Shown here one piece after another: positions 52,940-64,000 of a stretch of DNA of 64,000 nucleotides. The translations under genes were made by a program, and so were the position numbers. The stretch comes from Candidatus Levyibacteriota bacterium (GTDB taxonomy: Bacteria > Patescibacteriota > Microgenomatia > Levybacterales > GWA1-39-11). The stretch covers positions 6,956-70,955 of the forward strand of contig JBCLLY010000004.1 of the NCBI GenBank assembly GCA_039738415.1, written 5' to 3'. The notes beneath the pieces were generated by a model. That model searched no databases and was not told the origin of the DNA. It saw only the letters and a list, made by a program, of their open reading frames with translations. Positions within the stretch are counted from its first letter, which is position 1; each line of letters begins with the position of its first letter.

Positions 52940-53007
52940 CGGCCCCATAGTTCCCGACGAATTCCATTCGTGCGGGATTCCGATAGAATAGCGTATCGGG
53001 ACTAGCG
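52940..53007 (+). other. 5' fragment of tRNA-Glu interrupted by a 50-nt double-hairpin insert
   Basis: cggccccatagt (52940-52951) equals 53258-53269. The insert spans 52952-53001 and folds into hairpins 52952-52977 and 52978-53001. ctagcg (53002-53007) equals 53270-53275. Confidence 0.6.
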
Positions 53008-53018
53008 ACAAAATTAAC

Positions 53019-53273
53019 GTGTATTTTACTTATATAATCAAAAGTTTAAAAAATGGTAAATACTATATAGGTAGTACTAACAATATTGAAAGAAGGGTTT
53101 CGGAACATAACACGGGTCATTCAAAATACACTAAGAATAAGGGACCATTTGAACTAGTATATAAAGAAGAATATAATACCAATTCGGAGGCAAAAAAGAG
53201 AGAATATTATTTCAAATCATTAAAAAGTAGTAAAGCAATTGAAAAATTAATACATTACGGCCCCATAGTCTAG
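53019..53273 (+). CDS. minimal GIY-YIG nuclease domain protein (YhbQ/COG2827-like)
   Basis: 84 aa with a GTG start. YFTYIIKS...KYYIGSTNNIERRVSEHN and EAKKREYYFKS. The stop codon TAG 53271-53273 lies 15 nt inside tRNA-Glu. Confidence 0.85.
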   Translation: MYFTYIIKSLKNGKYYIGSTNNIERRVSEHNTGHSKYTKNKGPFELVYKEEYNTNSEAKKREYYFKSLKSSKAIEKLIHYGPIV

Positions 53274-53330
53274 CGGTTAGGACACTTGGTTCTCATCCAA
53301 GAGACCCGGATTCGAATTCCGGTGGGGTCA
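53259..53330 (+). tRNA. tRNA-Glu (anticodon CTC)
   Basis: 72-nt manual cloverleaf. Acceptor ggcccca/tggggtc (one G-U pair), D-arm gtctagcggttaggac, anticodon arm cttgg-ttCTCat-ccaag, T-arm ccgga-ttcgaat-tccgg, discriminator A. No encoded CCA. Confidence 0.85.
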
Positions 53331-53496
53331 CCCTTCGACAGGCTCAGGATTTTACACTAAATATCTGAAGTACAAACGCATCTATTGCATTCACGCGGGT
53401 TCGCTATTCAGTAAGTACTATAGTATAATGATTATGGTTCTATACATTTTCTAATTCTCCCCGTTCTTGGAATTACAGTCTGTATCTCATCTCATT

Positions 53497-54537
53497 ATGA
53501 AAAAACTTATAAATAACCGCTATGCTAATTATTACCTGAATGCTGCGGATAAACTTGGTCTCAAGTATAAAATTATTAATAGTCAGGCAGCTTTAGCAAG
53601 AATTTATGATGACGACAAGTCAATTGAACTAAGTGCAAATGTACTTAGTCTAAATTCTCAACTGAGTGCTGCTCTTGCAACAAACAAAAAGAAAACTTCA
53701 TTACTTCTTAGAGATGAAAACATCCCGGTCCCTGACTTTAAGACATTTAGAGATCCAAAGCTTGCGGAAAAATATCTTTTGAATAAACTAAAAGGAATTC
53801 AAACATACGTAGTAAAACCTTTAAGCGGGTCACTTGCAATTGGGATTACCATAAACCCAATGACATATGGTCAGGTAGTACAAGCACTAAAGGAAGCGTT
53901 TGAAGAAAACTCAGAAATAATTATTGAGAAGTATATTCCCGGACAGCACTACCGCATTACCGTACTGGATGACGAAGTTATTGCAATCACTCAACGACTT
54001 CCAGCTTATGTCGTAGGAGATGCACAAAAAACCGTAGAAGAACTTATTGCGGAAAAAAACATAAAAAGAAATATACGTAACCTTCCACCAATAATTCTCC
54101 GCACAAAAGACCATAATTACCTGAAAACCAAGAAAATTAAAACTAGCACCATTTGTCCTGAAGGAGAACAATTAACTTTACAATTGGGGTGTGATATGAA
54201 TATAGGAGGAGAAAGAAAACGCATCGACAGAGATTTCGTTCCTGAGATAAATAAAGATTTATTTATAACGGCAGCCAGAACTTTGGACCTGCGCTTCGCC
54301 GGCATTGATTATATTTCTCCAGACATTACCATACCCTATACTCGGGTTGTAAGCGCTATAAATGAAATAAATAGTGCTCCTCATTCTGACGTGCATTACC
54401 GCGACACATATCCATTTGACAATTACGCTGCAGAGAGAATAATTGAGAAAATATTTGGCAGGGATATTCTCAACGTGCAAAATCCGCTTCTCAACAGTGA
54501 AGCGGCAGTGGATATTTATTCACCTTTTATCGGATAA
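53497..54537 (+). CDS. ATP-grasp ligase resembling the N-terminal (G) domain of cyanophycin synthetase / RimK-like
   Basis: KKKTSLLLRDENIPVP, YVVKPLSGSLAIGI, IIIEKYIPGQHYRITVLDDEVIAITQRLPAYVVGDAQKTVEELI, GCDMNIGGERKRID, LRFAGIDYISPDI, and INEINSAPHSDVHY. ATG 53497 is preferred over TTG 53467. Confidence 0.7.
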   Translation: MKKLINNRYANYYLNAADKLGLKYKIINSQAALARIYDDDKSIELSANVLSLNSQLSAALATNKKKTSLLLRDENIPVPDFKTFRDPKLAEKYLLNKLKGIQTYVVKPLSGSLAIGITINPMTYGQVVQALKEAFEENSEIIIEKYIPGQHYRITVLDDEVIAITQRLPAYVVGDAQKTVEELIAEKNIKRNIRNLPPIILRTKDHNYLKTKKIKTSTICPEGEQLTLQLGCDMNIGGERKRIDRDFVPEINKDLFITAARTLDLRFAGIDYISPDITIPYTRVVSAINEINSAPHSDVHYRDTYPFDNYAAERIIEKIFGRDILNVQNPLLNSEAAVDIYSPFIG

Positions 54538-54548
54538 TTTATTATAAT

Positions 54549-56945
54549 TTAATCTGCGGCGATTGGTTGCGGAACCTTTAGTTTTGATTCCTTCTCTCCT
54601 TGAATTTTCTTGAATCCCTCGATCGGTTTTGTTAAGGCCTCCTTCAGCACTTCATCCATATGCGATGCGAATACAAAACGTAAGTCTTTTGCTACTTCTT
54701 TCGGAATTTCCTCCAAATCTTTTCTATTCTCTTTGGGTAAAATTAACGTTCGTATTCCGGCACGATGGGCTGCAATCACTTTTTCTTTTACTCCACCAAT
54801 TTCAAGTATTCTTCCCCGAAGCGTAACCTCTCCAGTCATTCCCACCATTCTATTTACGGGAATTTTAGTTAGAGCTGATACTATTGCGGTAGTTATAGCT
54901 CCTCCTGCAGACGGTCCGTCTTTGGGGACAGCGCCTTCCGGAACATGTACATGAACATCTATAGTTCTATAAAAATTCTCATCAAGCCCAAATTTATTTG
55001 CGCGGGCGCGAATATAAGTCAATGCCGCCTGACAGCTTTCTTTCATAACATCACCTAACTGTCCAGTCAGAACTAGCTGACCTTTTCCGGGCATAAGTGC
55101 TACTTCTATAAATAGAATTTCTCCACCAACCTCTGTCCAAGCAAGACCGGTACTCATCCCTATTTCGTTTTTCTTCTCAGCCAGGGTTGAGGTATATCTC
55201 GCTGGTCCCAAAAACTTTTTAATATTTTTTTCTGTTACTTCCATTTTCTTTTTCTTTCCCTCAGCCACATTCCTGGCAATTTTTCTAAATACTTTTGCTA
55301 TCTCACGCTCTAGGCTTCTAACACCGGCCTCCCTGGTATATCTTTGGATTATATACTGCAGTGCTTTATCAGAAATCTCCACATTGTTACTTTTTAGTCC
55401 ATTTGCTTCAAGCTGTTTTTTTACTAAATATTTTTTTGCTATGTGAAATTTCTCTTCGCTTGTATATCCTGCAAAGTTAATTGTCTCTAACCTATCGCGA
55501 AGTGCAGGTGGAATGGTGTGTAAAAGATTTGAGGTTGTAATAAACATAACATCTGATAAATCAAACGGTACTTCTAAATAATGGTCTGAAAACGCATTAT
55601 TTTGCTCCGGATCTAATGCTTCCAAAAGCGCAGAAGATGGATCTCCCCTATAATCTGCTCCCACCTTATCTATCTCGTCAAGCATAAATACGGGATTATT
55701 TGTCTTTGCATCTTTTATTCCCAGAATAATTCGTCCCGGCATTGCTCCCACATAAGTTCTTCTATGGCCTCTTATTTCTGCCTCATCATGGATACCACCA
55801 AGAGACATTTTTACAAATTCACGTCCTAATGCTTTTGCAATTGACTTTCCTATAGAGGTTTTGCCTACCCCAGGAGGTCCATTAAAACACAAAATTGGTC
55901 CTTTCATTTTGCCTGATAATTTATGAACCGCCAAATACTCAATGACTCTCTCTTTTACCTTGTTTAATCCGTAATGTTCTTCGTCCAGAATTTTTTCAGC
56001 GTCTTTAAGCTTAATATCGTTTTTACTCTTCTCGCTCCAAGGGAGTCCTACAAGCGTCTCCAAATAATTTCTTATGTACCCAGATTCGGGATTGTATGGA
56101 GTAAGCTGTTGAAGTTTCTTAAGCTCTTTTCTGGCCTTTTCTTCAACGTCCTCAGGCATTTTTGCTTTCTTTATCTTATCCTGTAACTCTTTTATCTCAC
56201 CTATATCATCGCCTTCACCCAACTCTTTCTCAATACTCTTAAGTCTTTCGCGTAAGATAGCATCCTTTGTAGTCTTTTCAAACTTTTCCTGAGTTCTATT
56301 CGTAATTCTTCTTTCAAGTTCCAAAACTTTTACCTCACGGGATAAATATTCTGATACTTTCTCTAGCCTTTTTTTCACTTCAAAAATTTCCAATATCTCC
56401 TGCCTTTCGCTTCCTTTAATATCCAACGTTGAGGCTATTTGATCTGCAAGTTCCGCCGGATTTATGTCAGACATTATATTCATAAAGACTAAAAAGTCCG
56501 CCTGTTTTCCTAAACTTAATGATTTCTTAAATAATGAAGTTACGTGATTCATAAGCGCAGTCATTTCATCACTTTGTGTAATAGTCTCCTCTATCTCTTC
56601 CAAAACAGCCTCCAGGTGTTCTGCTGATTGGTTATAACTCACAATTCTTGCCCTTGAAATCCCCCTTACTAATGCATTTACCTCGCCATCAGATCTAATC
56701 ATACGCTCAATGTGCGCAATTGTTCCCACTTCATAAAGCTCAGTAAGATCCGGATTATTTTGCCTAGGGTTTTTTTGAAGCACGAAACACACAAGCCTTT
56801 CGCCTGTAAAAGCGTTTTCAAGCGCTGCAAGACTTTTGGGTCTGCCGAAGGTCAAAATTGACTCCGTATGTGGAAATACTATCCCGTCCCGGATAGGTAT
56901 TACAGGCACATGCTGCAGGTTAGAATCGGATCTTTTTGGTATCAT
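54549..56945 (-). CDS. lon: ATP-dependent Lon protease (LonA)
   Basis: 798 aa. N-terminal VPVIPIRDGIVFPH, Walker A GPPGVGKTS, and the protease motif VPKDGPSAGGAITTAIVS. Confidence 0.95.
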   Translation of the reverse strand: MIPKRSDSNLQHVPVIPIRDGIVFPHTESILTFGRPKSLAALENAFTGERLVCFVLQKNPRQNNPDLTELYEVGTIAHIERMIRSDGEVNALVRGISRARIVSYNQSAEHLEAVLEEIEETITQSDEMTALMNHVTSLFKKSLSLGKQADFLVFMNIMSDINPAELADQIASTLDIKGSERQEILEIFEVKKRLEKVSEYLSREVKVLELERRITNRTQEKFEKTTKDAILRERLKSIEKELGEGDDIGEIKELQDKIKKAKMPEDVEEKARKELKKLQQLTPYNPESGYIRNYLETLVGLPWSEKSKNDIKLKDAEKILDEEHYGLNKVKERVIEYLAVHKLSGKMKGPILCFNGPPGVGKTSIGKSIAKALGREFVKMSLGGIHDEAEIRGHRRTYVGAMPGRIILGIKDAKTNNPVFMLDEIDKVGADYRGDPSSALLEALDPEQNNAFSDHYLEVPFDLSDVMFITTSNLLHTIPPALRDRLETINFAGYTSEEKFHIAKKYLVKKQLEANGLKSNNVEISDKALQYIIQRYTREAGVRSLEREIAKVFRKIARNVAEGKKKKMEVTEKNIKKFLGPARYTSTLAEKKNEIGMSTGLAWTEVGGEILFIEVALMPGKGQLVLTGQLGDVMKESCQAALTYIRARANKFGLDENFYRTIDVHVHVPEGAVPKDGPSAGGAITTAIVSALTKIPVNRMVGMTGEVTLRGRILEIGGVKEKVIAAHRAGIRTLILPKENRKDLEEIPKEVAKDLRFVFASHMDEVLKEALTKPIEGFKKIQGEKESKLKVPQPIAAD

Positions 56946-56948
56946 GGA

Positions 56949-56975
56949 TTAGCAGTGTAGCAAATCATTTGCTAA
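56949..56975. promoter_or_regulatory. CIRCE-like inverted repeat immediately upstream of lon
   Basis: ttagcagtg-tagcaaatc-atttgctaa (9-9-9) compared with CIRCE TTAGCACTC-N9-GAGTGCTAA. The outer TTAGCA/TGCTAA arms match. An inner perfect palindrome tagcaaat-c-atttgcta spans 56958-56974. The element ends 4 nt from the lon ATG. Confidence 0.35.
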
Positions 56976-57228
56976 CTGTCAATACTCTCTAGTTTGAAGT
57001 AGTTTATCTGAATTATAACTAGGTGTCAAGGATACCCAAACGCCCTCAAATAGACAAATTAATTACTACTATTTTTTTTATTTTAAATGCATCATAATTA
57101 TTCTTGCGCGAATAATCGCAGGAATGTGGAGCTCAAATATTTCCGTTGCGCAAGGTGGCACGCCTTAACTCAAATGCTTAAAAATTCTATCATTTAAATC
57201 TCTTCCGTTGGCTTTAATATTAACTCTT

Positions 57229-57237
57229 TGGTATAAT
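57229..57237 (+). promoter_or_regulatory. extended -10 promoter driving the tRNA-Gln-fragment / GIY-YIG / tRNA-Gln unit
   Basis: tggtataat (TGnTATAAT). The predicted transcription start is about 5 nt before the first nucleotide of the tRNA-like fragment. Confidence 0.55.
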
Positions 57238-57249
57238 TTGAGTCTACAT

Positions 57250-57323
57250 TGCCGGATAGCCTAATGATAGCCAGCGCTTACAGCGCGGTCTCGCCCTAAG
57301 GCGATGAGACAACGGGTTCTGAA
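57250..57323 (+). other. tRNA-Gln-like 5' half (acceptor 5' strand to anticodon loop) carrying a 37-nt D-arm insert
   Basis: tgccggatagcctaatgatag + ccagcgcttacagcgcggtctcgccctaaggcgatga + gacaacgggttctgaa. Compare the intact tRNA tgctggatcgtctaatggtag + gacaacggattctgga. The insert is identical to that in the units at 57655-57874. Confidence 0.6.
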
Positions 57324-57335
57324 ATTGTTTAATAT

Positions 57336-57578
57336 ATGTTTGCTACCTATATACTTAAAAGTCAGACTAAGGAATGGTATTACATAGGTCATACATCAAA
57401 CATTGAAAATAGATTAAAAGAACATAATATGGGTAGAAGCAAATCGACCAAACCATATATGCCACTTGTACTAAAATACAAAGAAGATTTTAATACAAAA
57501 GGCGAAGCGTTCAAAAGAGAGCAACAAATTAAGAACTACAAGCATGGAGAAGCATTTAAGAAATTGATTGGTATCTAG
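57336..57578 (+). CDS. minimal GIY-YIG nuclease domain protein (YhbQ/COG2827-like)
   Basis: 80 aa. FATYILKS...WYYIGHTSNIENRLKEHN and EAFKREQQIKN. The stop lies 3 nt before tRNA-Gln. Confidence 0.85.
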   Translation: MFATYILKSQTKEWYYIGHTSNIENRLKEHNMGRSKSTKPYMPLVLKYKEDFNTKGEAFKREQQIKNYKHGEAFKKLIGI

Positions 57579-57581
57579 GGC

Positions 57582-57652
57582 TGCTGGATCGTCTAATGGT
57601 AGGACAACGGATTCTGGATCCGTTTATCTAGGTTCAAATCCTAGTCCAGCAG
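57582..57652 (+). tRNA. tRNA-Gln (anticodon CTG)
   Basis: 71-nt manual cloverleaf. Acceptor tgctgga/tccagca (U1-A72), D-arm gtct-aatggta-ggac, anticodon arm acgga-ttCTGga-tccgt, T-arm ctagg-ttcaaat-cctag, discriminator G. Followed by cc. Confidence 0.85.
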
Positions 57653-57654
57653 CC

Positions 57655-57768
57655 GTAGATACGAGTCGTCTAATGGTAGCCAGCGCTTACAGCGCGGTCT
57701 CGCCCTAAGGCGATGAGACAACGGATTCTGGATCCGTTTATCTAGGTTCAAATCCTAGTCCAGCAGCC
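57655..57768 (+). repeat. 114-bp tRNA-Gln-like tandem unit B (D-arm insert, no complementary 5' acceptor strand)
   Basis: gtagatacgag, then tRNA-Gln nt 8-22, then the 37-nt insert (57680-57716), then tRNA-Gln nt 23 to the 3' end plus cc. The 7 nt in the acceptor position (atacgag) cannot pair with tccagca. Confidence 0.8.
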
Positions 57769-57874
57769 GTAGATACGAGTCGTCTAATGGTAGCCAGCGC
57801 TTACAGCGCGGTCTCGCCCTAAGGCGATGAGACAACGGATTCTGGATCCGTTTATCTAGGTTCAAATCCTAGTC
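57769..57874 (+). repeat. tRNA-Gln-like tandem unit C (second copy, divergent 3' end)
   Basis: Identical to unit B through cctagtc (57874), then diverges (tcccagctcagtccc), so the 3' acceptor strand is lost. Confidence 0.8.
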
Positions 57875-57993
57875 TCCCAGCTCAGTCCCTAACAGGCGGG
57901 GACATGTTTATTGGGGTTTTAAACCGCTATGCTCAGCAAAAAAAATAGCCTTGAAAATTAGAACCGAACGCCAGTTCAAACCTTTTTTGCTAC

Positions 57994-58001
57994 TGTATAA
58001 T
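57994..58001 (+). promoter_or_regulatory. extended -10 element upstream of the helicase gene
   Basis: tgtataat, 23 nt before ATG 58025. Confidence 0.45.
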
Positions 58002-58024
58002 AACATTAGAAAATACTATTTTTT

Positions 58025-59356
58025 ATGACACAACAAGAAGCCTTTGACTTACTAAAAATGGGGCATAATGTTTACCTAACCGGCGCGGCAGGCAGTGGAA
58101 AAACATACTTATTAAACAAATACATCGGGTTCCTAAAAAATAAGAAGGTTGGAGTAGGTATTACTGCCTCAACTGGGATTGCCGCAACACACATGAATGG
58201 TCGGACTATCCATTCATGGTCCGGAATGGGTATTAAAGATGCGCTAACTAAGGAAGATCTCAGTAAGCTTCTTGCCAAGCGGTATCTCCGTAAGACTTTC
58301 GCCGAGGCAAAGGTGCTTATCATTGATGAAATTTCCATGCTTCACTCTTTTCGTCTGGATATGGTTGATAGAATTTGTAAGGCGTTCAAAGAAAGTACAT
58401 TACCCTTTGGAGGAATACAAGTTGTTCTCTGCGGAGACTTTTTTCAATTACCCCCGGTAAGCAAAAATGGTGAGGAAGCAAATTTTGTCCATAAATCAGA
58501 TATTTGGCAAGAAATGGATATTAAAATCTGTTATCTTGAGGAACAGCACCGGCAGGAAGATAAACCGTTTTTACAAGTTCTGAATGATATAAGAAGCAAT
58601 ACTGTAAGCGATACGACAAAACAGTCCTTAAACAGCCGGCATAACAAAGAGGTTGCAATTGATATTCCACCAACAAAACTATTCACCCATAATGCAGATG
58701 TTGACGCTATCAACAACATGGAACTGGAAAAGATTAAGAAAGAACCACAAATATACCAAATGTCATCAAGAGGCATTGACGCGCTCGTTGAAACATTAAA
58801 GAAAAACTGTCTAGCCCCCGAGCAATTAATTCTTAAAAAGGGAGCAGTTGTCATGTTTGTCAAAAATAACTTTGAGAAAGGATATGTGAATGGAACACTT
58901 GGAAAAGTGGCGGGCTTTGATAAAGAGAGTTACCCGATTATTGAAACTGTCTCAAAAGATAAAATTATTGCTATGCCTGAAAAGTGGACAATAGAGGAAG
59001 GAAACAAAATTATTGCGGAAATTAATCAAATACCGCTCCGCCTTGCTTGGGCGATCACTGTTCATAAAAGCCAAGGAATGAGCCTTGACGCGGCAGTTAT
59101 TGATCTTTCCAAAGCATTTGAGCCGGGGATGGGGTATGTTGCTCTATCAAGGGTGAGAACTCTTGTTGGAATAAAACTGTTAGGTATCAATGACACTGCA
59201 TATGAGGTAAGTGCTGAAGCGATAGAACTGGACAGACAACTTATCAATCTTTCAAAACATGAAGAAAATAATCTCAAAAATCTAGGATGGTTGGAAAAAC
59301 ATAAAAGGCAAAATCAGTTTATCGGAAGTATAACCCCCAAAAAAGTAAAGACTTAA
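58025..59356 (+). CDS. Pif1/RecD-like superfamily-1 DNA helicase
   Basis: 443 aa. Walker A LTGAAGSGKTYLL, motif II LIIDEISML, LCGDFFQLPPV, and the C-terminal AWAITVHKSQGMSLD. Confidence 0.88.
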   Translation: MTQQEAFDLLKMGHNVYLTGAAGSGKTYLLNKYIGFLKNKKVGVGITASTGIAATHMNGRTIHSWSGMGIKDALTKEDLSKLLAKRYLRKTFAEAKVLIIDEISMLHSFRLDMVDRICKAFKESTLPFGGIQVVLCGDFFQLPPVSKNGEEANFVHKSDIWQEMDIKICYLEEQHRQEDKPFLQVLNDIRSNTVSDTTKQSLNSRHNKEVAIDIPPTKLFTHNADVDAINNMELEKIKKEPQIYQMSSRGIDALVETLKKNCLAPEQLILKKGAVVMFVKNNFEKGYVNGTLGKVAGFDKESYPIIETVSKDKIIAMPEKWTIEEGNKIIAEINQIPLRLAWAITVHKSQGMSLDAAVIDLSKAFEPGMGYVALSRVRTLVGIKLLGINDTAYEVSAEAIELDRQLINLSKHEENNLKNLGWLEKHKRQNQFIGSITPKKVKT

Positions 59357-59516
59357 ATCCTGCTTAATGTAAACTTTTATAATTGTTAGCCGGCATAGTA
59401 GTAGTTTTGTGAAGCTGAACAGGTTACAATGTTTTCAAGCACTCGTAGCGTAAAAATAGAAGGTATTGTATGAACTCTATTGCTTTAAAATTCATTCCTG
59501 ATGAAAAATAGTTTTT

Positions 59517-59819
59517 ATGAAATATAACGAGTATGAAGTACACACGCATGTTTTTCTCTACCCGGGAATGGCTGGATGGCACTTCGCAACGATTCCCCAA
59601 GACATATCTGCGGACATTAAAAAACAATTTGGAGACAGGAAGCGAGGGTGGGGATCTTTGCCAGTGAATGTAACTAGTGGCAAGACAACCTGGAAAACAT
59701 CCATTTTCCCAGACAAAGAATCAGGCGGATATCTTCTTCCGCTTAAGGCGGATGTACGCAAAAGAGAAGGCATCAAAGCCGATGCAACAATCACATTACT
59801 TATTGAGATAAGAGCGTGA
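59517..59819 (+). CDS. DUF1905 domain protein
   Basis: 100 aa. GMAGWHFATIP...GWGSLPVNVTSGKTTWKTSIFPDKESGGYLLPLKADVRK. Confidence 0.7.
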   Translation: MKYNEYEVHTHVFLYPGMAGWHFATIPQDISADIKKQFGDRKRGWGSLPVNVTSGKTTWKTSIFPDKESGGYLLPLKADVRKREGIKADATITLLIEIRA

Positions 59820-59883
59820 CGATTCGTTCTAGAATTTAGATTTTATCAAAAATATAAAGTATCCTGCTATAATAAAAGAGTAA

Positions 59884-60429
59884 ATGAATTCGTTTAAAAG
59901 TAAATATATTGTAATCGGAGTGATAGTTGTTGCTCTCTTTATAGCTGGTTACTTTATTTATTCCAATTTAGGAAAAAAAACAATTGACATATCAGGACAG
60001 AAAGCAAGCAAAAATCAAGGGAGTCAAACGTCGACTACGCCACAAATAGTTGATAAGCAAGCTTCTTTCGCCATTTTCACCAATGGAACTTTCCGAGTGT
60101 TTACGGCTACAATGTATCACAATCTTTCACCTGACGTATTTATTGAAGCAAGTAGCCAAAACGTTATACAAATCAAGAAAGACGGATCGACCTGGAATGA
60201 TTTCTTCTCCACCTTACCTTTCAAACTCACTCGTGAATGTCTTACAACTGTAACCAGGCAAACTTTCTGTAATGGATTAAATGGCACGCTAAAGTTTTAT
60301 ATTAATGGTATAAGAAACGATGACGCATTGAGTAATAAAATCAATCATGGTGACAAAATGCTCATTACCTATGGTAACGAAATCAAAGAGCAAATTCAGA
60401 AACAACTTGATAGATTAAATTCACTATAG
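59884..60429 (+). CDS. hypothetical membrane-anchored/secreted protein
   Basis: 181 aa. N-terminal TM YIVIGVIVVALFIAGYFIY and an extracytoplasmic domain with 2 Cys. I recognise no family. Confidence 0.6.
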   Translation: MNSFKSKYIVIGVIVVALFIAGYFIYSNLGKKTIDISGQKASKNQGSQTSTTPQIVDKQASFAIFTNGTFRVFTATMYHNLSPDVFIEASSQNVIQIKKDGSTWNDFFSTLPFKLTRECLTTVTRQTFCNGLNGTLKFYINGIRNDDALSNKINHGDKMLITYGNEIKEQIQKQLDRLNSL

Positions 60430-60456
60430 TTAGCCTAAAATAATCTCTCTTGTAAT

Positions 60457-61017
60457 ATGAAAACTTGGAAAAGATATCGATACAAAAACCTCACATTCTT
60501 TTTCTTCTCGCTTGTTTTGGCTTTTTTTGTTTATCAGAACGAAACGATTCATTCTTTTCTGTTACACCTTGGTAACACTGGCTACATAGGCGCATTTTTT
60601 GCAGGAATATTATTTGTATCTACTTTTACGGTTGCTACTGGCGCAATTATATTATTTGTTTTGGCCGAAACACTTTCTCCAATTGAAATAGGAATTATTG
60701 CAGGTCTTGGAGCAGTTGTAGGAGATTTTGTTATTTTTCGTTTTGTTAAAGATGATTTAGCAAGAGAGATTACATCTATTTATAGCAAGTTTGATAGAAA
60801 TCATCACCTAAAAAAGGTTTTACATACCAAGTACTTTAGTTGGACATTGCCTGTTCTTGGAGCAGTTATTGTTGCATCACCACTTCCTGATGAAATAGGA
60901 GTGAGCCTGATGGGAATTTCTAAAATGACAACGCCAAAGTTCTTGTTAATTTCTTTTGTGTTAAATGCTGTCGGAATATTTTTAGTCGTATCAGCATCCA
61001 CCTTGATAAAGCCATAA
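60457..61017 (+). CDS. small polytopic membrane protein (possibly DedA/VTT-like; tentative)
   Basis: 186 aa with 4-5 hydrophobic segments. GLGAVVGDFVIFRF and ASPLPDEIGVSLMG. Confidence 0.6.
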   Translation: MKTWKRYRYKNLTFFFFSLVLAFFVYQNETIHSFLLHLGNTGYIGAFFAGILFVSTFTVATGAIILFVLAETLSPIEIGIIAGLGAVVGDFVIFRFVKDDLAREITSIYSKFDRNHHLKKVLHTKYFSWTLPVLGAVIVASPLPDEIGVSLMGISKMTTPKFLLISFVLNAVGIFLVVSASTLIKP

Positions 61018-61408
61018 ATATATCAAAGTGCATCATTAAGCTTGAGACACCTTTTAATACTGTCTCAATTGTCTCATTTAGCCTTGACGTGAGACAGCAG
61101 TTATAACGATAAGAAGGTTCGAGACCAGTACGCTCAGCCATGTACCATTCGATACTTTGCTTTGCGTTTAATTTTGAATGAAACCACAACCGAATACCGA
61201 AATGGCATCTGCGCAAAGAGATGAAATTTGATAAACTTTTTCCGCCTCGGACTACATGTTCATGTAAGTAATAACCAGTACAAAACCTAAAAATAGAAAT
61301 AGAATAAAAAGGAGTTTGTTATTCTCGGAGTAATGTTTTTTTGATAAAACCTTTTTCTTTTTAGCCATACATTAAATGTAATGCAAAAAAACTATTTTAG
61401 CAAGTCCT

Positions 61409-63091
61409 CTAGGATTTTCTTTTACTTAGACTTTCTATATGCCTTTCTTTTTCTAATATAAATTCGCTTTTGTCAAATCCGTATCTTTGAATCATTTTGG
61501 CAACATGACGCGCTCCCAGATAATGAGGCATTACTACATATGTCGCTCCATTTTCATATAGGTCTTCTGCTTCTTTTATGTCTTGCGCAATCATAATAAT
61601 AATCGTTCTATGATTTTCCTCTTTCACTTTTTTTGTCAGCAAAATATTAGTTTTAAAATCCGGAATCGTCGAAACAACCAGCCTCACTTTATCCAAAGAC
61701 AATTCTTTAATAAATTCGGGATCCTGCGCATCTCCAAATCTTGACGGAATACCTAGCTCCCGGAGCTTTTCAATTGACTCCGGATTAAAGTCAATGATTA
61801 AGTAATCTCTATCTATTTTTTTAAACGCGTTGATAAAATCTTGACCCACCCTATCATATCCAAACAAAATTATTTCATATTTTTCACTCATTCCTCCTAC
61901 CTCTCCGCTTCCGATTTTTCTTAATTCTAAAAGCTTGAGAAGTTTTTCAATCTTTGGATAAATTTTATCCGCATAAAGAATAAAATAAGTAGACCCCGCA
62001 ATAGTAATAAGTCCTACGAGGGTTATTAAGGATAAAATTTCACGGCTTAAATGCCCTAAGTTAAATCCCAAAACTGCAAGAATAAGTGAAAATTCACTTA
62101 TCTGAGCAACAGTTAGACCCGCCATATAACCGGTTCTTCTTTTGTAACCCATTAAATTCATAAGAATTACAACAATAATAGGATTTCCTATCAGAACAAA
62201 TATTGAAAGAACAATCGCCGGGATTATGAGTACTCCCACATTATCAATCACCAGTTGTGAACCCAAAAGAATAAAGAAAAGTACTATAAAAAAGTCTCTC
62301 AGGGGTTTCATTCTCGACCCAATTTCGTAGGAAAAAGGAGTAAGCGATAGCGCAACTCCAGCGATAAGTGCGCCTATTTCGACAGAAAATCCTAACGCTT
62401 GAAATAATGCTGCAATCCCAAAACCCCAAGTAATGGAAAACAGGAACAGTAGCTCTTGAGAGGATGCCAAAAATTTGCTTACCTTAGGCATTACATAAAC
62501 GCTTACTATATAAAGTGTTATAAAAACGATTAATCCCTTTAGTAGCAAAATTCCGACTAGTGAATAAATATTTACGCTACTGTTTGCAGCAAATGACGAA
62601 ATTAGAAGTAAAATAATTGTGGCAATAATATCCTGAACCAAAAGAAACCCTATAGATATTTTTCCATAAAGTTTATTTAAATCTCCCCTATCAGAAAGAT
62701 GTTTTAAAATAATTATAGTGCTGCTAAAAGTAAGTGCAATTGCAACGTAAAACGCCGCAATTCTGTCAATACCCAAAACTAGAGCTATGGCAAACCCTAT
62801 GACAGAAGTGAATAAAACCTGACCCACCCCTGTTACAAGAGACACTTTTCCAACCTCTTTTATAACTTTCGGACTTAAACTTAACCCAACTATAAATAGT
62901 AAGACTGTAATTCCAATTTTTGAAAAAAGTTCAATTTGTTCTGTCGAGCGAAGGATATTTAATGCGTATGGACCTGCAATAATTCCAGCTAATATATATC
63001 CGACAATAAGAGGCTGTTTTAAAAACTTCATCAGCATCGCAAAAAGCGTTGCTATAAGAATAATTATTGAAAGTTCTGTAAAAATTTCCAT
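61409..63091 (-). CDS. CPA2-family cation:proton antiporter with C-terminal RCK/TrkA-N domain (Kef-type)
   Basis: 560 aa. An N-terminal ~380-aa Na+/H+ exchanger-like TM domain, then the Rossmann-like IILFGYDRVGQDF and GDAQDPEF. Confidence 0.85.
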   Translation of the reverse strand: MEIFTELSIIILIATLFAMLMKFLKQPLIVGYILAGIIAGPYALNILRSTEQIELFSKIGITVLLFIVGLSLSPKVIKEVGKVSLVTGVGQVLFTSVIGFAIALVLGIDRIAAFYVAIALTFSSTIIILKHLSDRGDLNKLYGKISIGFLLVQDIIATIILLLISSFAANSSVNIYSLVGILLLKGLIVFITLYIVSVYVMPKVSKFLASSQELLFLFSITWGFGIAALFQALGFSVEIGALIAGVALSLTPFSYEIGSRMKPLRDFFIVLFFILLGSQLVIDNVGVLIIPAIVLSIFVLIGNPIIVVILMNLMGYKRRTGYMAGLTVAQISEFSLILAVLGFNLGHLSREILSLITLVGLITIAGSTYFILYADKIYPKIEKLLKLLELRKIGSGEVGGMSEKYEIILFGYDRVGQDFINAFKKIDRDYLIIDFNPESIEKLRELGIPSRFGDAQDPEFIKELSLDKVRLVVSTIPDFKTNILLTKKVKEENHRTIIIMIAQDIKEAEDLYENGATYVVMPHYLGARHVAKMIQRYGFDKSEFILEKERHIESLSKRKS

Positions 63092-63143
63092 TTCCTAAAT
63101 CATTGTAAGGAATTAAGGGGTTTTTTAAAAGATACAAAATTGA

Positions 63144-63232
63144 AGCACCCACGACCTTACGGCTCGCCTCGCTGTATCTGGGGCGAAGCCAAGTCTGACT
63201 TGGCGAAGCGGGTCGGGGAATTGGGGTGCGGG
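63144..63232. other. GC-rich structured island (REP-like element or small RNA candidate)
   Basis: Outer pairing gcaccc/gggtgc and cgacc/ggtcg enclose the ccaagt-ctg-acttgg hairpin. It shares cccgcttcg and cagcgaggcgagc (reverse complement) with the rpsB 3' region. Confidence 0.4.
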
Positions 63233-63257
63233 GTAAATTGAGATAATTTAATTTCAA

Positions 63258-63295
63258 CAAAAAACCTCTCTGGAAATTAATCCAGAAAGGTTTTT
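63258..63295 (-). terminator. rho-independent (bidirectional-type) terminator of the RRM protein gene
   Basis: 9-position stem cctctctgg/ccagaaagg (8 bp, 1 mismatch) flanked by A6 and T6 runs, 18 nt downstream of the stop at 63313. Confidence 0.8.
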
Positions 63296-63312
63296 TCATT
63301 CAAACACTAATA

Positions 63313-63672
63313 TTAGTATCCACCTCCACGTCGGTCATCACGACCTCCGCGTCTGTCTCCACCTCTATTATCATCGCGTCTGAAACTTCCGCCGCCTGAG
63401 AAATTATTCTCTCTTGGCTGTTGTGGTCTTGCTTCTGAAACATTAATCGCACGTCCGTCTAAATCTTTACCATTTAACTCTTGCTTTGCTTTTTCAGCTT
63501 CTTCAGGAGTTGAAAATTCTACAAATCCGAATCCTTTTGACTTTCCAGTGTATTTATCAGAAATTACATTTGCCGAAACAACGCTTCCAACTGTTGAGAA
63601 AAATTCTCTCAATGTATCATCTGTCGTTCCCCATGCAAGACCTCCAACGAATAGTTTATTATTATTATCCAT
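63313..63672 (-). CDS. RRM-type RNA-binding protein with Arg/Gly-rich tail
   Basis: 119 aa. RNP-2 LFVGGL, RNP-1 KGFGFVEF, and an RGG-rich C-terminus. Strong SD ggaggtg 7 nt upstream of the ATG. Confidence 0.92.
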   Translation of the reverse strand: MDNNNKLFVGGLAWGTTDDTLREFFSTVGSVVSANVISDKYTGKSKGFGFVEFSTPEEAEKAKQELNGKDLDGRAINVSEARPQQPRENNFSGGGSFRRDDNRGGDRRGGRDDRRGGGY

Positions 63673-63840
63673 TTAATTTCACCTCCTTCTTATTAGTTGC
63701 TGTCGCTTAGAATTTTGGTGAAATCCATTAATAAATCTTTTGTGGGAATTATCTTTGGCAAGTTATCACTTATCTAAGAAGAACTAGCTATAAGTGTATT
63801 ATACAATACTAATGCAAAATTAGCTATAATAAGTTGTTCT

Positions 63841-64000
63841 ATGAACATAGGCAAAAAAATCATCTTAGCCTCAAATTCTCCACGGAGAAAAAGGCTCATG
63901 AAAGAGTCAGGCTATAAATTCACCATATACCCCAGTAATGCGGATGAAAACTCTGATGAGAAAAACCCTCACAAGTACACGATGCTCCTTTCAGAGAGGA
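63841..64000 (+). CDS. maf: Maf-like nucleoside-triphosphate pyrophosphatase, 5' partial (runs off the window)
   Basis: MNIGKKIILASNSPRRKRLMKESGY matches the Maf N-terminal (I)LAS.SPRR..LL motif. tataat (63825-63830) lies 10 nt upstream of the ATG. Confidence 0.7.
   Translation, partial: MNIGKKIILASNSPRRKRLMKESGYKFTIYPSNADENSDEKNPHKYTMLLSER

Follow-up and report, generated by a model that had tools for sequence, protein, structure and literature searches.

In a 64,000-nucleotide (nt) stretch of contig JBCLLY010000004.1 from Candidatus Levyibacteriota (hereafter the window; coordinates are positions in it), a transfer RNA (tRNA) gene for glutamine is split by a small unit composed of an 80-amino-acid (80-aa) GIY-YIG nuclease open reading frame (ORF) and an intact tRNA-Gln gene. 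We think it probable that this locus is a selfish homing-type cassette which sits inside a tRNA transcription unit and encodes a stand-alone, putative nuclease of the UPF0213 type. The evidence comes from a near-identical sister genome (L125) in which the ORF is missing, from the recurrence of the same architecture beside tRNA genes in several bacterial phyla, and from a conserved, base-paired element of two hairpins (the module) in the tRNA remnants around the ORF.

Architecture of the tRNA-Gln locus

The locus contains the following elements, given with coordinates and strand.

57208..57237, + strand: sigma-70-like promoter (TTGGCT, 18-nt spacer, extended -10 TG-TATAAT), 10 of 12 matches, the best of the region
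57250..57321, + strand: tRNA-Gln 5' remnant (acceptor 5' strand, D arm, anticodon-stem 5' strand, loop to CTG) bearing the module; the 99% block shared with L125 ends at 57321
57271..57307, + strand: double-hairpin module copy 1 (37 nt), two hairpins, -16.6 kcal/mol, z -2.3
57322..57335, + strand: short AT-rich leader, cassette-owned, missing from L125 and without a Shine-Dalgarno-like motif
57336..57578, + strand: predicted stand-alone GIY-YIG nuclease ORF of the UPF0213 type, 80 aa, Pfam GIY-YIG 6e-15, starting 12 nt past the ttCTGaa loop
57566..57668, + strand: extended leader-trailer helix around the tRNA, -53.3 kcal/mol, z -7.8
57582..57654, + strand: tRNA-Gln(CTG), intact and module-free (ARAGORN; Rfam 64 bits), 3 nt past the ORF stop
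57655..57768, + strand: downstream unit 1, with trailer gtagatacgag, tRNA nt 8-20, module (57680-57716), tRNA nt 21 to the 3' end and a TCCAGCA acceptor strand
57769..57880, + strand: downstream unit 2, as unit 1 (module 57794-57830), ending TCTCCCA-G
57885..57903, + strand: terminator-like hairpin of the resident tRNA transcription unit, common to L125, where the same bases also pair with the tRNA leader

Every element named in an earlier reading of this DNA made from the letters alone (the sequence-only reading), namely promoter, tRNA fragment, insert, ORF and tRNA, is present where that reading had placed it; the two downstream tRNA-Gln units and the leader-trailer helix had escaped it. The promoter match, of which TGGTATAAT at 57229-57237 is a part, is the promoter of the resident tRNA, and the same sequence is kept in L125. 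About 12 nt separate its end from tgccgga (57250-57256), which differs from the TGCTGGA of the tRNA by one mismatch and is followed by the D-arm-like gcct/aatgata; 4 of 20 positions differ between this upstream fragment and the intact tRNA of the window. In module copy 1, hairpin A (CC-A(bulge)-GCGC/GCGC-GG) occupies 57271-57288 and hairpin B (TCTCGCC/GGCG-ATG-AGA(C)) occupies 57289-57310, where it borrows the GAC of the D stem, a capture that had been recognized before. The module is followed by GAC, acggg and the ttCTGaa loop (57317-57323). AT-rich leaders comparable to that of the ORF, 5-15 nt long, are found at other loci.

Past the intact tRNA, a perfect 114-nt tandem repeat at 57603-57874 comprises the two further tRNA-Gln units. 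Both have gtagatacgag in place of the 5' acceptor strand and carry an identical 37-nt insert at the D-loop position that it has in the 5' remnant. A 41-nt string that contains the insert is present in three copies in the window against none expected, so the pattern is not due to chance. Rfam scores the insert-bearing units at 26 bits, below its cut-off, and takes hairpin B as the D arm. The acceptor stem of the intact tRNA (TGCTGGA/TCCAGCA) is foreign relative to the TGGGAGA/TCTCCCA of L125, and unit 2 ends in TCTCCCA, the 3' acceptor strand that belongs to the resident tRNA, intact in L125.

In the extended helix, the 16 nt of 57566-57581 (ORF 3' end and stop) face the trailer at 57653-57668, with 14 of 16 pairing, and the pairing covaries across loci. 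Such a helix suggests an unusual pre-tRNA processing stem in this lineage, possibly an RNase III-type site. Helices of this kind, with 12-15 of 16 nt paired in a locus-specific sequence, were also seen at the Gln loci L001-L008, L092, L093 and L100, and one encloses the ORF-less tRNA of L125 (4254-4375).

Comparison with a sister genome

L125 was found by using the neighbouring helicase, a cluster mate of which (>90% identical) lies on another NCBI contig; the neighbouring genes of the cassette are Lon and this PIF1-type helicase. Identity between L125 and the window is 99.06% over 53069-57321 (4.25 kb on the left) and 98.9% over 57993-64000 (6 kb on the right). Between these conserved blocks the window has 671 nt, which hold only the 80-aa GIY-YIG ORF and tRNA units; the interval in L125 consists, in order, of 27 nt, an intact tRNA-Gln, a 20-nt flank, a 38-nt copy of the tRNA 3' end and a 441-aa ORF. 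No GIY-YIG ORF is present at the Gln locus of L125, which retains the promoter and the insert-bearing 5' fragment with its module. Its intact tRNA-Gln has a body identical to that of the cassette tRNA, the acceptor stem TGGGAGA/TCTCCCA and no insert. As L125 is near-identical and lacks the ORF, the ORF and its tRNA form a cassette that was gained or lost.

Homology between the two genomes stops exactly after ttctg (57321), and the end of the last unit in the window, TCTCCCAG followed by ctcagtccctaacaggcggg, is the same as the L125 tRNA's 3' end plus its flanking sequence, with 57831-57900 being 100% identical to L125 4302-4371. The breakpoint agrees with the earlier view that the ORF and a tRNA interrupt a tRNA-Gln gene and that the fragment is its 5' part. 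The 3' half, which had been thought replaced, was instead displaced downstream, where it stands in two insert-bearing copies. Nor do the data show a once-functional, insert-bearing tRNA gene: no uninterrupted copy was found, the working tRNA of L125 is insert-free and its fragment persists without an ORF. A search of metagenome contigs for the D-loop/module junction of a complete insert-bearing tRNA-Gln gave 42 matches, about 13 of them real and all beside a GIY-YIG ORF. The insert of L125 has two substitutions, one of which breaks a hairpin pair.

Ten of the 40 mismatches in the left block fall inside the last 170 nt beside the breakpoint (p = 3e-6), which is what co-conversion from a diverged donor would give, though mismatches cluster elsewhere too, for example at lon. 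Presence/absence polymorphism between close relatives together with mismatch clustering at the breakpoint, as in homing endonucleases, was thereby observed in this single pair. At lon, 23 of the 40 left-block mismatches lie within 1 kb (54927-55924), with zero over the next 1.2 kb, so that the window and L125 look like recombination mosaics generally, beyond the tRNA locus. L125 4372-5968, which comprises the 38-nt tRNA-Gln 3'-end copy and then the 441-aa ORF on the minus strand, is missing from the window at 57901-57992 and hence represents a second, different insertion at the same tRNA locus; the 441-aa ORF has no Pfam match and is acidic and of low complexity at its ends.

Occurrence across bacteria

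A protein search retrieved 35 relatives, the alignment of which was scanned against the genome collection and yielded 80 loci picked by protein similarity alone. Locus counts are from the profile search and ARAGORN and cover 81 full-length ORFs, with 49 tRNA-adjoining ORFs testable for remnants. Most loci are from Patescibacteria, the nearest being from Roizman-, Levy- and Woesebacteria; others are from Ignavibacteriota (including Melioribacter), Omnitrophota, Bacteroidota and KSB1. A same-strand tRNA starts between -20 and +25 nt from the ORF stop at 54 of the 81 ORFs (Ser 23, Tyr 13, Gln 6, Pro 6, Glu 5, Thr 1).

A copy of the 5' end of the tRNA (starting at nt 1-2) lies at most 160 nt upstream in 38 of the 49 loci and in 0 of 49 control regions. 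The sequence-only reading had proposed a test for this enrichment, which is thus strongly positive, and had named, among the outcomes that would overturn it, a decayed neighbouring tRNA unrelated to the ORF, against which these counts speak. The hairpin module, detected by regular expressions so that all its counts are minimum values, is found upstream in 27 of the 49 loci and in none of the 49 controls, and a copy of the tRNA 3' half lies at most 260 nt downstream in 12 of the 49. For 50 of 59 loci, the nearest protein relative from another locus adjoins the same tRNA isotype (24% expected), and some of the exceptions are ARAGORN mis-calls of remnants. The protein lineage follows the tRNA isotype across Patescibacteria, Omnitrophota, Ignavibacteriota and Bacteroidota.

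Individual loci show how the resident gene is divided. In L003, the upstream piece is only TCCGGGGTCGT, right before the ATG, and the downstream insert-bearing unit resumes with CTAATGGTA and ends in CCCCGGA; the pieces are complementary and contiguous and therefore together make one tRNA-Gln(TTG) gene, split between nt 11 and 12, with an acceptor stem unlike the one in the tRNA of the cassette itself. L001 likewise has outer pieces tgccgga/tccggca around an inner tRNA with TGCTGAG/CTCAGCA. The left junction varies: it is at nt 11 in L003, in the anticodon loop at most Gln loci and in the T stem, at nt ~65, in L093. The right junction lies at nt 8-14. L008 and L092 are identical except for three segments, namely the last 45 nt of the ORF with the 5' acceptor, the 3' acceptor with the trailer, and the final acceptor with the flank, a mosaic that one exchange tract across a tRNA with a conserved body would produce.

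Tandem arrays are present at these cassettes in nine independent assemblies. In the isolate Melioribacter sp. OK-6-Me (L011, 2323-3233), a 360-nt unit made up of tRNA-Ser(GCT) nt 1-20, the module, nt 21-38, the ORF and a 40-nt spacer is tandemly repeated, and the array closes in an intact tRNA-Ser; this organism is cultured, which opens the system to experiment there. A 1.0-Mb contig of Uhrbacteria (L047, 2865-3925) has 12 perfect copies of an 86-nt unit directly after the cassette tRNA-Tyr. The unit, a tRNA-Tyr 3' remnant with a module hairpin, consists of a terminator-like hairpin, part of the variable arm of tRNA-Tyr, TCCCGCCatcGGCGGGA, and the T-loop together with the acceptor's 3' strand. 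In Bacteroidales (L055, 2033-3511; L076, 2045-2969; L029), tRNA-Pro and GIY-YIG ORF alternate in units of ~360 nt, each ORF overlapping the next tRNA by 8-10 nt. One further locus, L020, has a run of N after similar repeats.

Fragment graveyards of tRNA-Thr and tRNA-Tyr with modules, some of them nested or truncated, adjoin intact tRNA-Thr and tRNA-Tyr genes at L023 (300-600) and L073 (2160-2300 and 3100-3340), and a module piece in the Tyr remnant is homologous to the module in the Thr remnant of the same locus. ARAGORN calls module-bearing remnants tRNA genes at L034 (2752-2848), L092 (4977-5049) and L093, for example a tRNA-Tyr 3' remnant with a module that is reported as 'tRNA-Ser', and second 'tRNA-Gln' genes whose start lies within a module. 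The tRNA counts of such genomes are likely inflated or mislabelled.

A second locus of the same design lies in the window itself.

52944..53332, + strand: tRNA-Glu locus, with 5' remnant ggccccatagt, two hairpins, GIY-YIG ORF and intact tRNA-Glu

The sequence-only reading had described the Gln and Glu loci as one design with different inserts; the shared layout stands, but the Gln insert turns out to belong to a conserved module family rather than being locus-specific. The Glu-locus ORF (53019-53273, 84 aa) has a GTG start, and its protein is 53% identical to that of the Gln locus. The remnant ggccccatagt is promoter-proximal, and the hairpins are AT-richer (TCCCG...CGGGA and TTCCG...CGGGA). 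The TAG stop of this ORF lies inside the intact tRNA-Glu (53259-53332), so that cleavage by ribonuclease (RNase) P would deprive the messenger RNA (mRNA) of its stop codon. The Glu ORF differs between the window and L125 at five nucleotides, and all five differences are non-synonymous.

The GIY-YIG protein

Both ORFs match Pfam PF01541 (55.7 bits for the Gln ORF and 71.4 bits for the Glu ORF; cut-off 22.6), which places them in the GIY-YIG superfamily. Y5, Y16, R26, H30, N31 and E62 are invariant in 19 homologues, and we take these residues to be catalytic by analogy with I-TevI and UvrC. The alignment profile matches the structures 1zg2 (8.5e-10) and 1ywl (1.7e-9) over residues 2-68, and Slx1 chains weakly (~1e-3). 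By these matches the product of the 80-aa ORF is a stand-alone GIY-YIG protein of the UPF0213/COG2827 type with a single domain; scores against TIGR01453 (16.7 and 24.9 bits) are far below its cut-off of 56. Third codon positions of the ORF change about 2.5 times as often as first and second positions, a pattern that fits purifying selection, and the protein looks functional.

No relatives of the Gln ORF and no module were found in IMG/VR, a search of GenBank phages for relatives of the ORF gave only two 39% Staphylococcus matches, and a PHROG search with the Gln ORF gave no match; a phage origin was rejected on these searches. PADLOC gave only weak sub-threshold matches (E-values of 9e-4 or worse), and membership in a defence system was dropped.

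The double-hairpin module

The module consists of hairpin A, with the consensus CC-A(bulge)-SCGCC/loop/GGCGS-GG, and hairpin B, with T-xCCGCC/loop/GGCGGx-A or a variant of it. The two-hairpin element is found in remnants whatever the tRNA type, at a position that varies with the type.

tRNA-Gln: D-loop, after GGTAG
tRNA-Tyr and tRNA-Ser: within the anticodon, after G34 or G35 (34/35 or 35/36)
Several loci: T-loop, between TTCG and AAT
L009: after acceptor nt 6
tRNA-Glu: a GC hairpin in place of the entire anticodon arm

Among unique hairpins, 46 are in forward and 20 in reverse orientation, and modules are nested in L073, L001 and L005. All 59 matches to the regular expression have a GIY-YIG ORF, its tRNA or its remnants no more than a few hundred nt away, except for one module-like string in a coding sequence (L059), which was judged a chance match; no module was found elsewhere in the 64-kb window, in the 49 control regions or in IMG/VR. 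Upstream and downstream copies within one locus share loop sequences, and the loops differ between loci. At the Gln loci the module stems are nearly invariant although about half of the third codon positions of the ORF differ. Covariation in the insert, for which the sequence-only reading had recommended a check, is seen at the position-4 pair of hairpin A (C-G 23, G-C 11, T-A 7, wobble 3, mismatch 1). Given the near-invariant stems and this covarying pair, the module is base-paired and under constraint.

Its independence of orientation favours a role in DNA. Over all stem positions of the module no excess of G-U over A-C was seen. Its occurrence in several loops and in both orientations suggests that the module is DNA belonging to the cassette and no oddity of a single tRNA. 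Some of its traits (GC-rich, two hairpins, both orientations, nested copies, a covarying pair) recall a miniature palindromic element, but its copies are confined to GIY-YIG/tRNA loci, so that independent mobility would be hypothetical. Candidate roles are to shield remnants from cleavage or repeat-mediated deletion, to provide branched DNA for a Slx1-like enzyme, or to be a separate miniature element.

Several other identities were considered and set aside. A kink-turn or hammerhead for the GAUGAGA of hairpin B was rejected by inspection, as the opposite strand pairs Watson-Crick, and folding of the whole module as a single long hairpin is possible in some Ser-type copies only and not in the Gln or Tyr types. 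With Rfam, tRNA was the sole match both at the gathering threshold (window and 15 loci) and at E <= 10 (locus), and group I intron, ribozyme and riboswitch readings were dropped for want of a family match. An intron-containing tRNA gene does not fit either: no splicing structure was found, all module-bearing tRNA-Gln copies found are truncated or split, and the working tRNA is insert-free. A Chi-like site, GGCGGTGG, resembles the E. coli GCTGGTGG, and the likeness is one of resemblance only.

Proposed mechanism and alternative explanations

We propose that the core of the cassette is the 80-aa GIY-YIG gene placed head-to-tail with an intact tRNA-Gln and a short trailer, and that it would enter a resident tRNA-Gln by recombination, most likely double-strand-break repair, with tRNA sequence serving as the homology arms. 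The resident gene would be split, its 5' part staying by the promoter and its 3' part being pushed downstream and later duplicated in tandem, while the tRNA of the cassette would keep up the cell's supply of tRNA-Gln. For the window, the simplest reconstruction is that ORF, tRNA and trailer, with insert-bearing pieces of tRNA on either side, entered an L125-like locus by recombination, with the left crossover in the old fragment and the right one in the tRNA body, so that the resident 3' acceptor strand was kept, after which the 114-nt unit would have been duplicated. A donor with the order 5' remnant, ORF, tRNA and 3' remnant would offer three homologous copies to a broken tRNA gene, and the outcome would depend on the copies used: repair through the outer remnants on both sides would copy the whole cassette, repair through the upstream remnant and the intact tRNA would give 5' remnant, ORF and intact tRNA (the commonest form), and repair through the intact copy on both sides would give no transfer. 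Repair of this kind would explain why architectures vary, why acceptor stems are foreign and why mosaics arise, and the conservation of tRNA sequence everywhere would explain the spread across phyla.

The ORF would have no promoter of its own; transcription would reach it from the promoter of the resident tRNA by way of the 5' remnant, and the tRNA would be released from the transcript at the leader-trailer helix and by RNase P; lying between the promoter and an essential tRNA, the ORF would be hard to delete. The module, owned by the cassette, probably acts at the DNA level. It may make remnants unrecognizable and less recombinogenic, which would prevent deletion of the ORF or re-cutting; alternatively it could be a branched structure recognized by the Slx1-like nuclease. 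Tandem arrays would result from repeated breaks and unequal exchange.

Several points weigh against the homing-type cassette. The 80-aa ORF is a catalytic domain only and has no equivalent of the DNA-binding region of characterized GIY-YIG homing enzymes, and its nuclease activity and target are putative. No near-identical donor cassette was found, the best match being 76% at the protein level. The near-isogenic comparison is a single pair (n=1), so the direction of the change, gain or loss, is presumptive. L125 has the 5' remnant and module without the ORF, which means that an earlier round of invasion and loss must be assumed, and the body of the cassette tRNA equals the resident body in L125, so that a target in the body would also be cut in the carrier genome. 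The tRNA-Pro/ORF arrays of Bacteroidales gave no match to the module expression, and the link between ORF and tRNA is accordingly independent of the module. The copy number of the 114-nt repeat in the window is that of the assembly and is provisional. Disruption of a target site by itself would need no conserved module sequence, so the model in its present form leaves the module's role unaccounted for.

A more far-reaching version, which we put forward tentatively and consider doubtful as it stands, is a novel class of mobile element in which a minimal Slx1-like nuclease and the double-hairpin module would use tRNA genes as landing pad and portable homology arms, with structure-specific cutting of cruciforms extruded from tRNA genes or modules, and with isotype specificity arising from the flanking tRNA repeats. 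Under such an element, tRNA genes would be split, duplicated and replaced, lineages would exchange acceptor stems, tandem arrays would form, and the conservation of tRNA sequences would let it cross phyla.

Among the rival explanations, a design at the RNA level is unlikely. Here the tRNA-like leader and the downstream units would be functional RNAs that control the nuclease mRNA in its processing, stability or translation, or RNA partners or decoys of the nuclease (for example a type III toxin-antitoxin-like antitoxin or a tRNA-shaped targeting RNA). It would suit remnants that start exactly at tRNA nt 1 right after the promoter, modules that sit only in loops or replace a whole arm so that a tRNA-like fold could survive, an ORF that starts 5-25 nt past the last stem without a Shine-Dalgarno-like motif, a covarying leader-trailer helix, identical tandem units downstream, and a covarying module pair with 3 wobble and no A-C cases. 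Modules, however, occur in both orientations to the transcript (46/20) with no excess of G-U over A-C, remnant length ranges from 11 nt (L003) to ~65 nt (L093), downstream units are present in only 12 of 49 loci, and L125 keeps remnant and module with no ORF to regulate; there was no match to an Rfam family and no credible one in PADLOC. The 12 of 49 loci with downstream units and the sub-threshold PADLOC matches also set the locus apart from ToxIN-like type III toxin-antitoxin systems. Less likely again is that the module is an independent miniature palindromic mobile element in dead tRNA loops and that ORF and module are separate parasites sharing a recombination hot spot. Its two orientations, its nesting in L073, L001 and L005, its insertion in different loops of different isotypes, its GC-richness in AT-rich DNA and its retention in ORF-less L125 agree with such an element; its restriction to the vicinity of GIY-YIG ORFs and remnants (the L059 chance string apart; none in the 49 controls, the rest of the window or IMG/VR), the loops that copies within a locus share and that differ between loci, and the same hairpin-A consensus that accompanies the ORF across phyla do not.

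That the fragment is a dying neighbour tRNA unrelated to the ORF and the repeats a mis-assembly of strain variants is very improbable. The 4 of 20 differences between fragment and intact tRNA, the fragment without an ORF in L125, and perfect 114-nt repeats of a kind typical of trouble in short-read assembly (with the N-run after similar repeats in L020) could be so explained. This account of the fragment is largely refuted by 5' copies at 38/49 versus 0/49 and modules at 27/49 versus 0/49, and by a layout seen in dozens of independent assemblies of several phyla, including an isolate genome and the 1-Mb contig with the 12-copy array. In addition, the junction of gtagatacgag with tcgtctaatggta is foreign both to a tRNA gene without the module and to a complete one that bears it, which means that it cannot arise by merging of such variants. 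The most improbable reading is an integrase-type islet with partial tRNA copies as attL and attR and the module as the att core. Module-bearing tRNA direct repeats do flank the ORF and tRNA, and recombination between two modules would restore one complete module-bearing tRNA gene. Against this, no integrase or recombinase was found in or beside the cassette (671-nt segment, neighbours Lon and PIF1-type helicase), the metagenome and genome loci yielded no complete module-bearing tRNA-Gln that could be the 'empty' site, and the junctions vary (right nt 8-14, left nt 11 to ~65). GIY-YIG enzymes hydrolyse DNA, and to our knowledge they are not known for strand exchange.

If the homing-type cassette is the correct reading, tRNA genes in Patescibacteria, Omnitrophota, Ignavibacteriota and Bacteroidota would be cut, duplicated and replaced by a tiny selfish element that standard annotation shows merely as a 'GIY-YIG family protein' by a tRNA. 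It would explain tRNA fragments, odd ARAGORN and tRNAscan calls, tandem tRNA-like arrays, and swaps of acceptor stems between otherwise identical tRNA genes, and the large UPF0213 family would for the first time be set in a concrete biological context. Having a bulged base and one covarying pair, the module is a well-defined candidate nucleic-acid partner of the 80-aa nuclease, and the two may form a minimal structure-directed nuclease system.

Comparison with known systems

The UPF0213/COG2827 proteins BH0048 and EF2693 (nuclease domain related to Slx1) have the same size and the same single domain as the 80-aa ORF, but have no assigned function in the sources searched. In the literature we found no report that ties UPF0213 proteins to tRNA genes, partial tRNA duplications or hairpin modules, and we found neither the module nor cellular UPF0213-type cassettes inside tRNA genes described there. 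The cassette design, recurring in many uncultured bacteria, therefore seems to be undescribed so far.

In mitochondria of Allomyces, an endonuclease ORF (atp6/ORF360) reportedly enters a gene and brings with it a replacement for part of that gene, while the original part is displaced and persists as a remnant. Small GC-rich double-hairpin elements or GC clusters occur in the AT-rich DNA around such sites in fungal mitochondria. As in the Allomyces case, the ORF described here brings a replacement and a displaced remnant is left; unlike in the organellar cases, whose hosts are protein-coding genes, the hosts are bacterial tRNA genes, and the module is found only beside the cassette and has its own consensus.

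In Archaea, a mobile insertion parts a tRNA-Thr 5' fragment from the working gene in Caldiarchaeum and is heterogeneous within a natural population (PMC3293823). That element is 1.8 kb long and encodes a recombinase, and its fragments are related to bulge-helix-bulge introns, whereas the cassette has no recombinase, shows no sign of splicing and always has an intact tRNA beside it. Group I introns within Patescibacteria tRNA genes, with insertion at 35/36 and HNH homing endonucleases (10.1101/2025.07.03.662931), occur in the same phylum, share the anticodon-loop sites and likewise favour tRNA genes as targets. The cassette differs from them in having no match to intron models, an insert of ~36 nt, a GIY-YIG instead of an HNH domain and an uninterrupted working tRNA, and the survey of these introns (10.1101/2025.07.03.662931) does not mention such cassettes.

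The nearest known analogue is SegB of phages. SegB is about 220 aa long and includes a DNA-binding region. It is a free-standing GIY-YIG homing endonuclease enriched beside tRNA genes, for which tandem amplification of a unit of tRNA-Tyr and segB was shown experimentally (PMC13096335; PMC2330249), the 5' end of the tRNA and the 3' end of the nuclease gene sharing microhomology (PMC13096335). As with SegB of T4 and T6, the GIY-YIG gene directly adjoins a tRNA, there are tandem arrays of ORF and tRNA, and the ORF overlaps with its 3' end the 5' end of the tRNA. In contrast to SegB, which is phage-encoded and of the I-TevI/Seg type, the proteins here are 80-aa UPF0213 catalytic domains on chromosomes of uncultured bacteria and are not in the viral collections searched, and the cassettes are nested in a split tRNA gene with hairpin-marked remnants. 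If the proposed reading is correct, the link between GIY-YIG nucleases and tRNA genes that is known from phage SegB would extend to cellular genomes.

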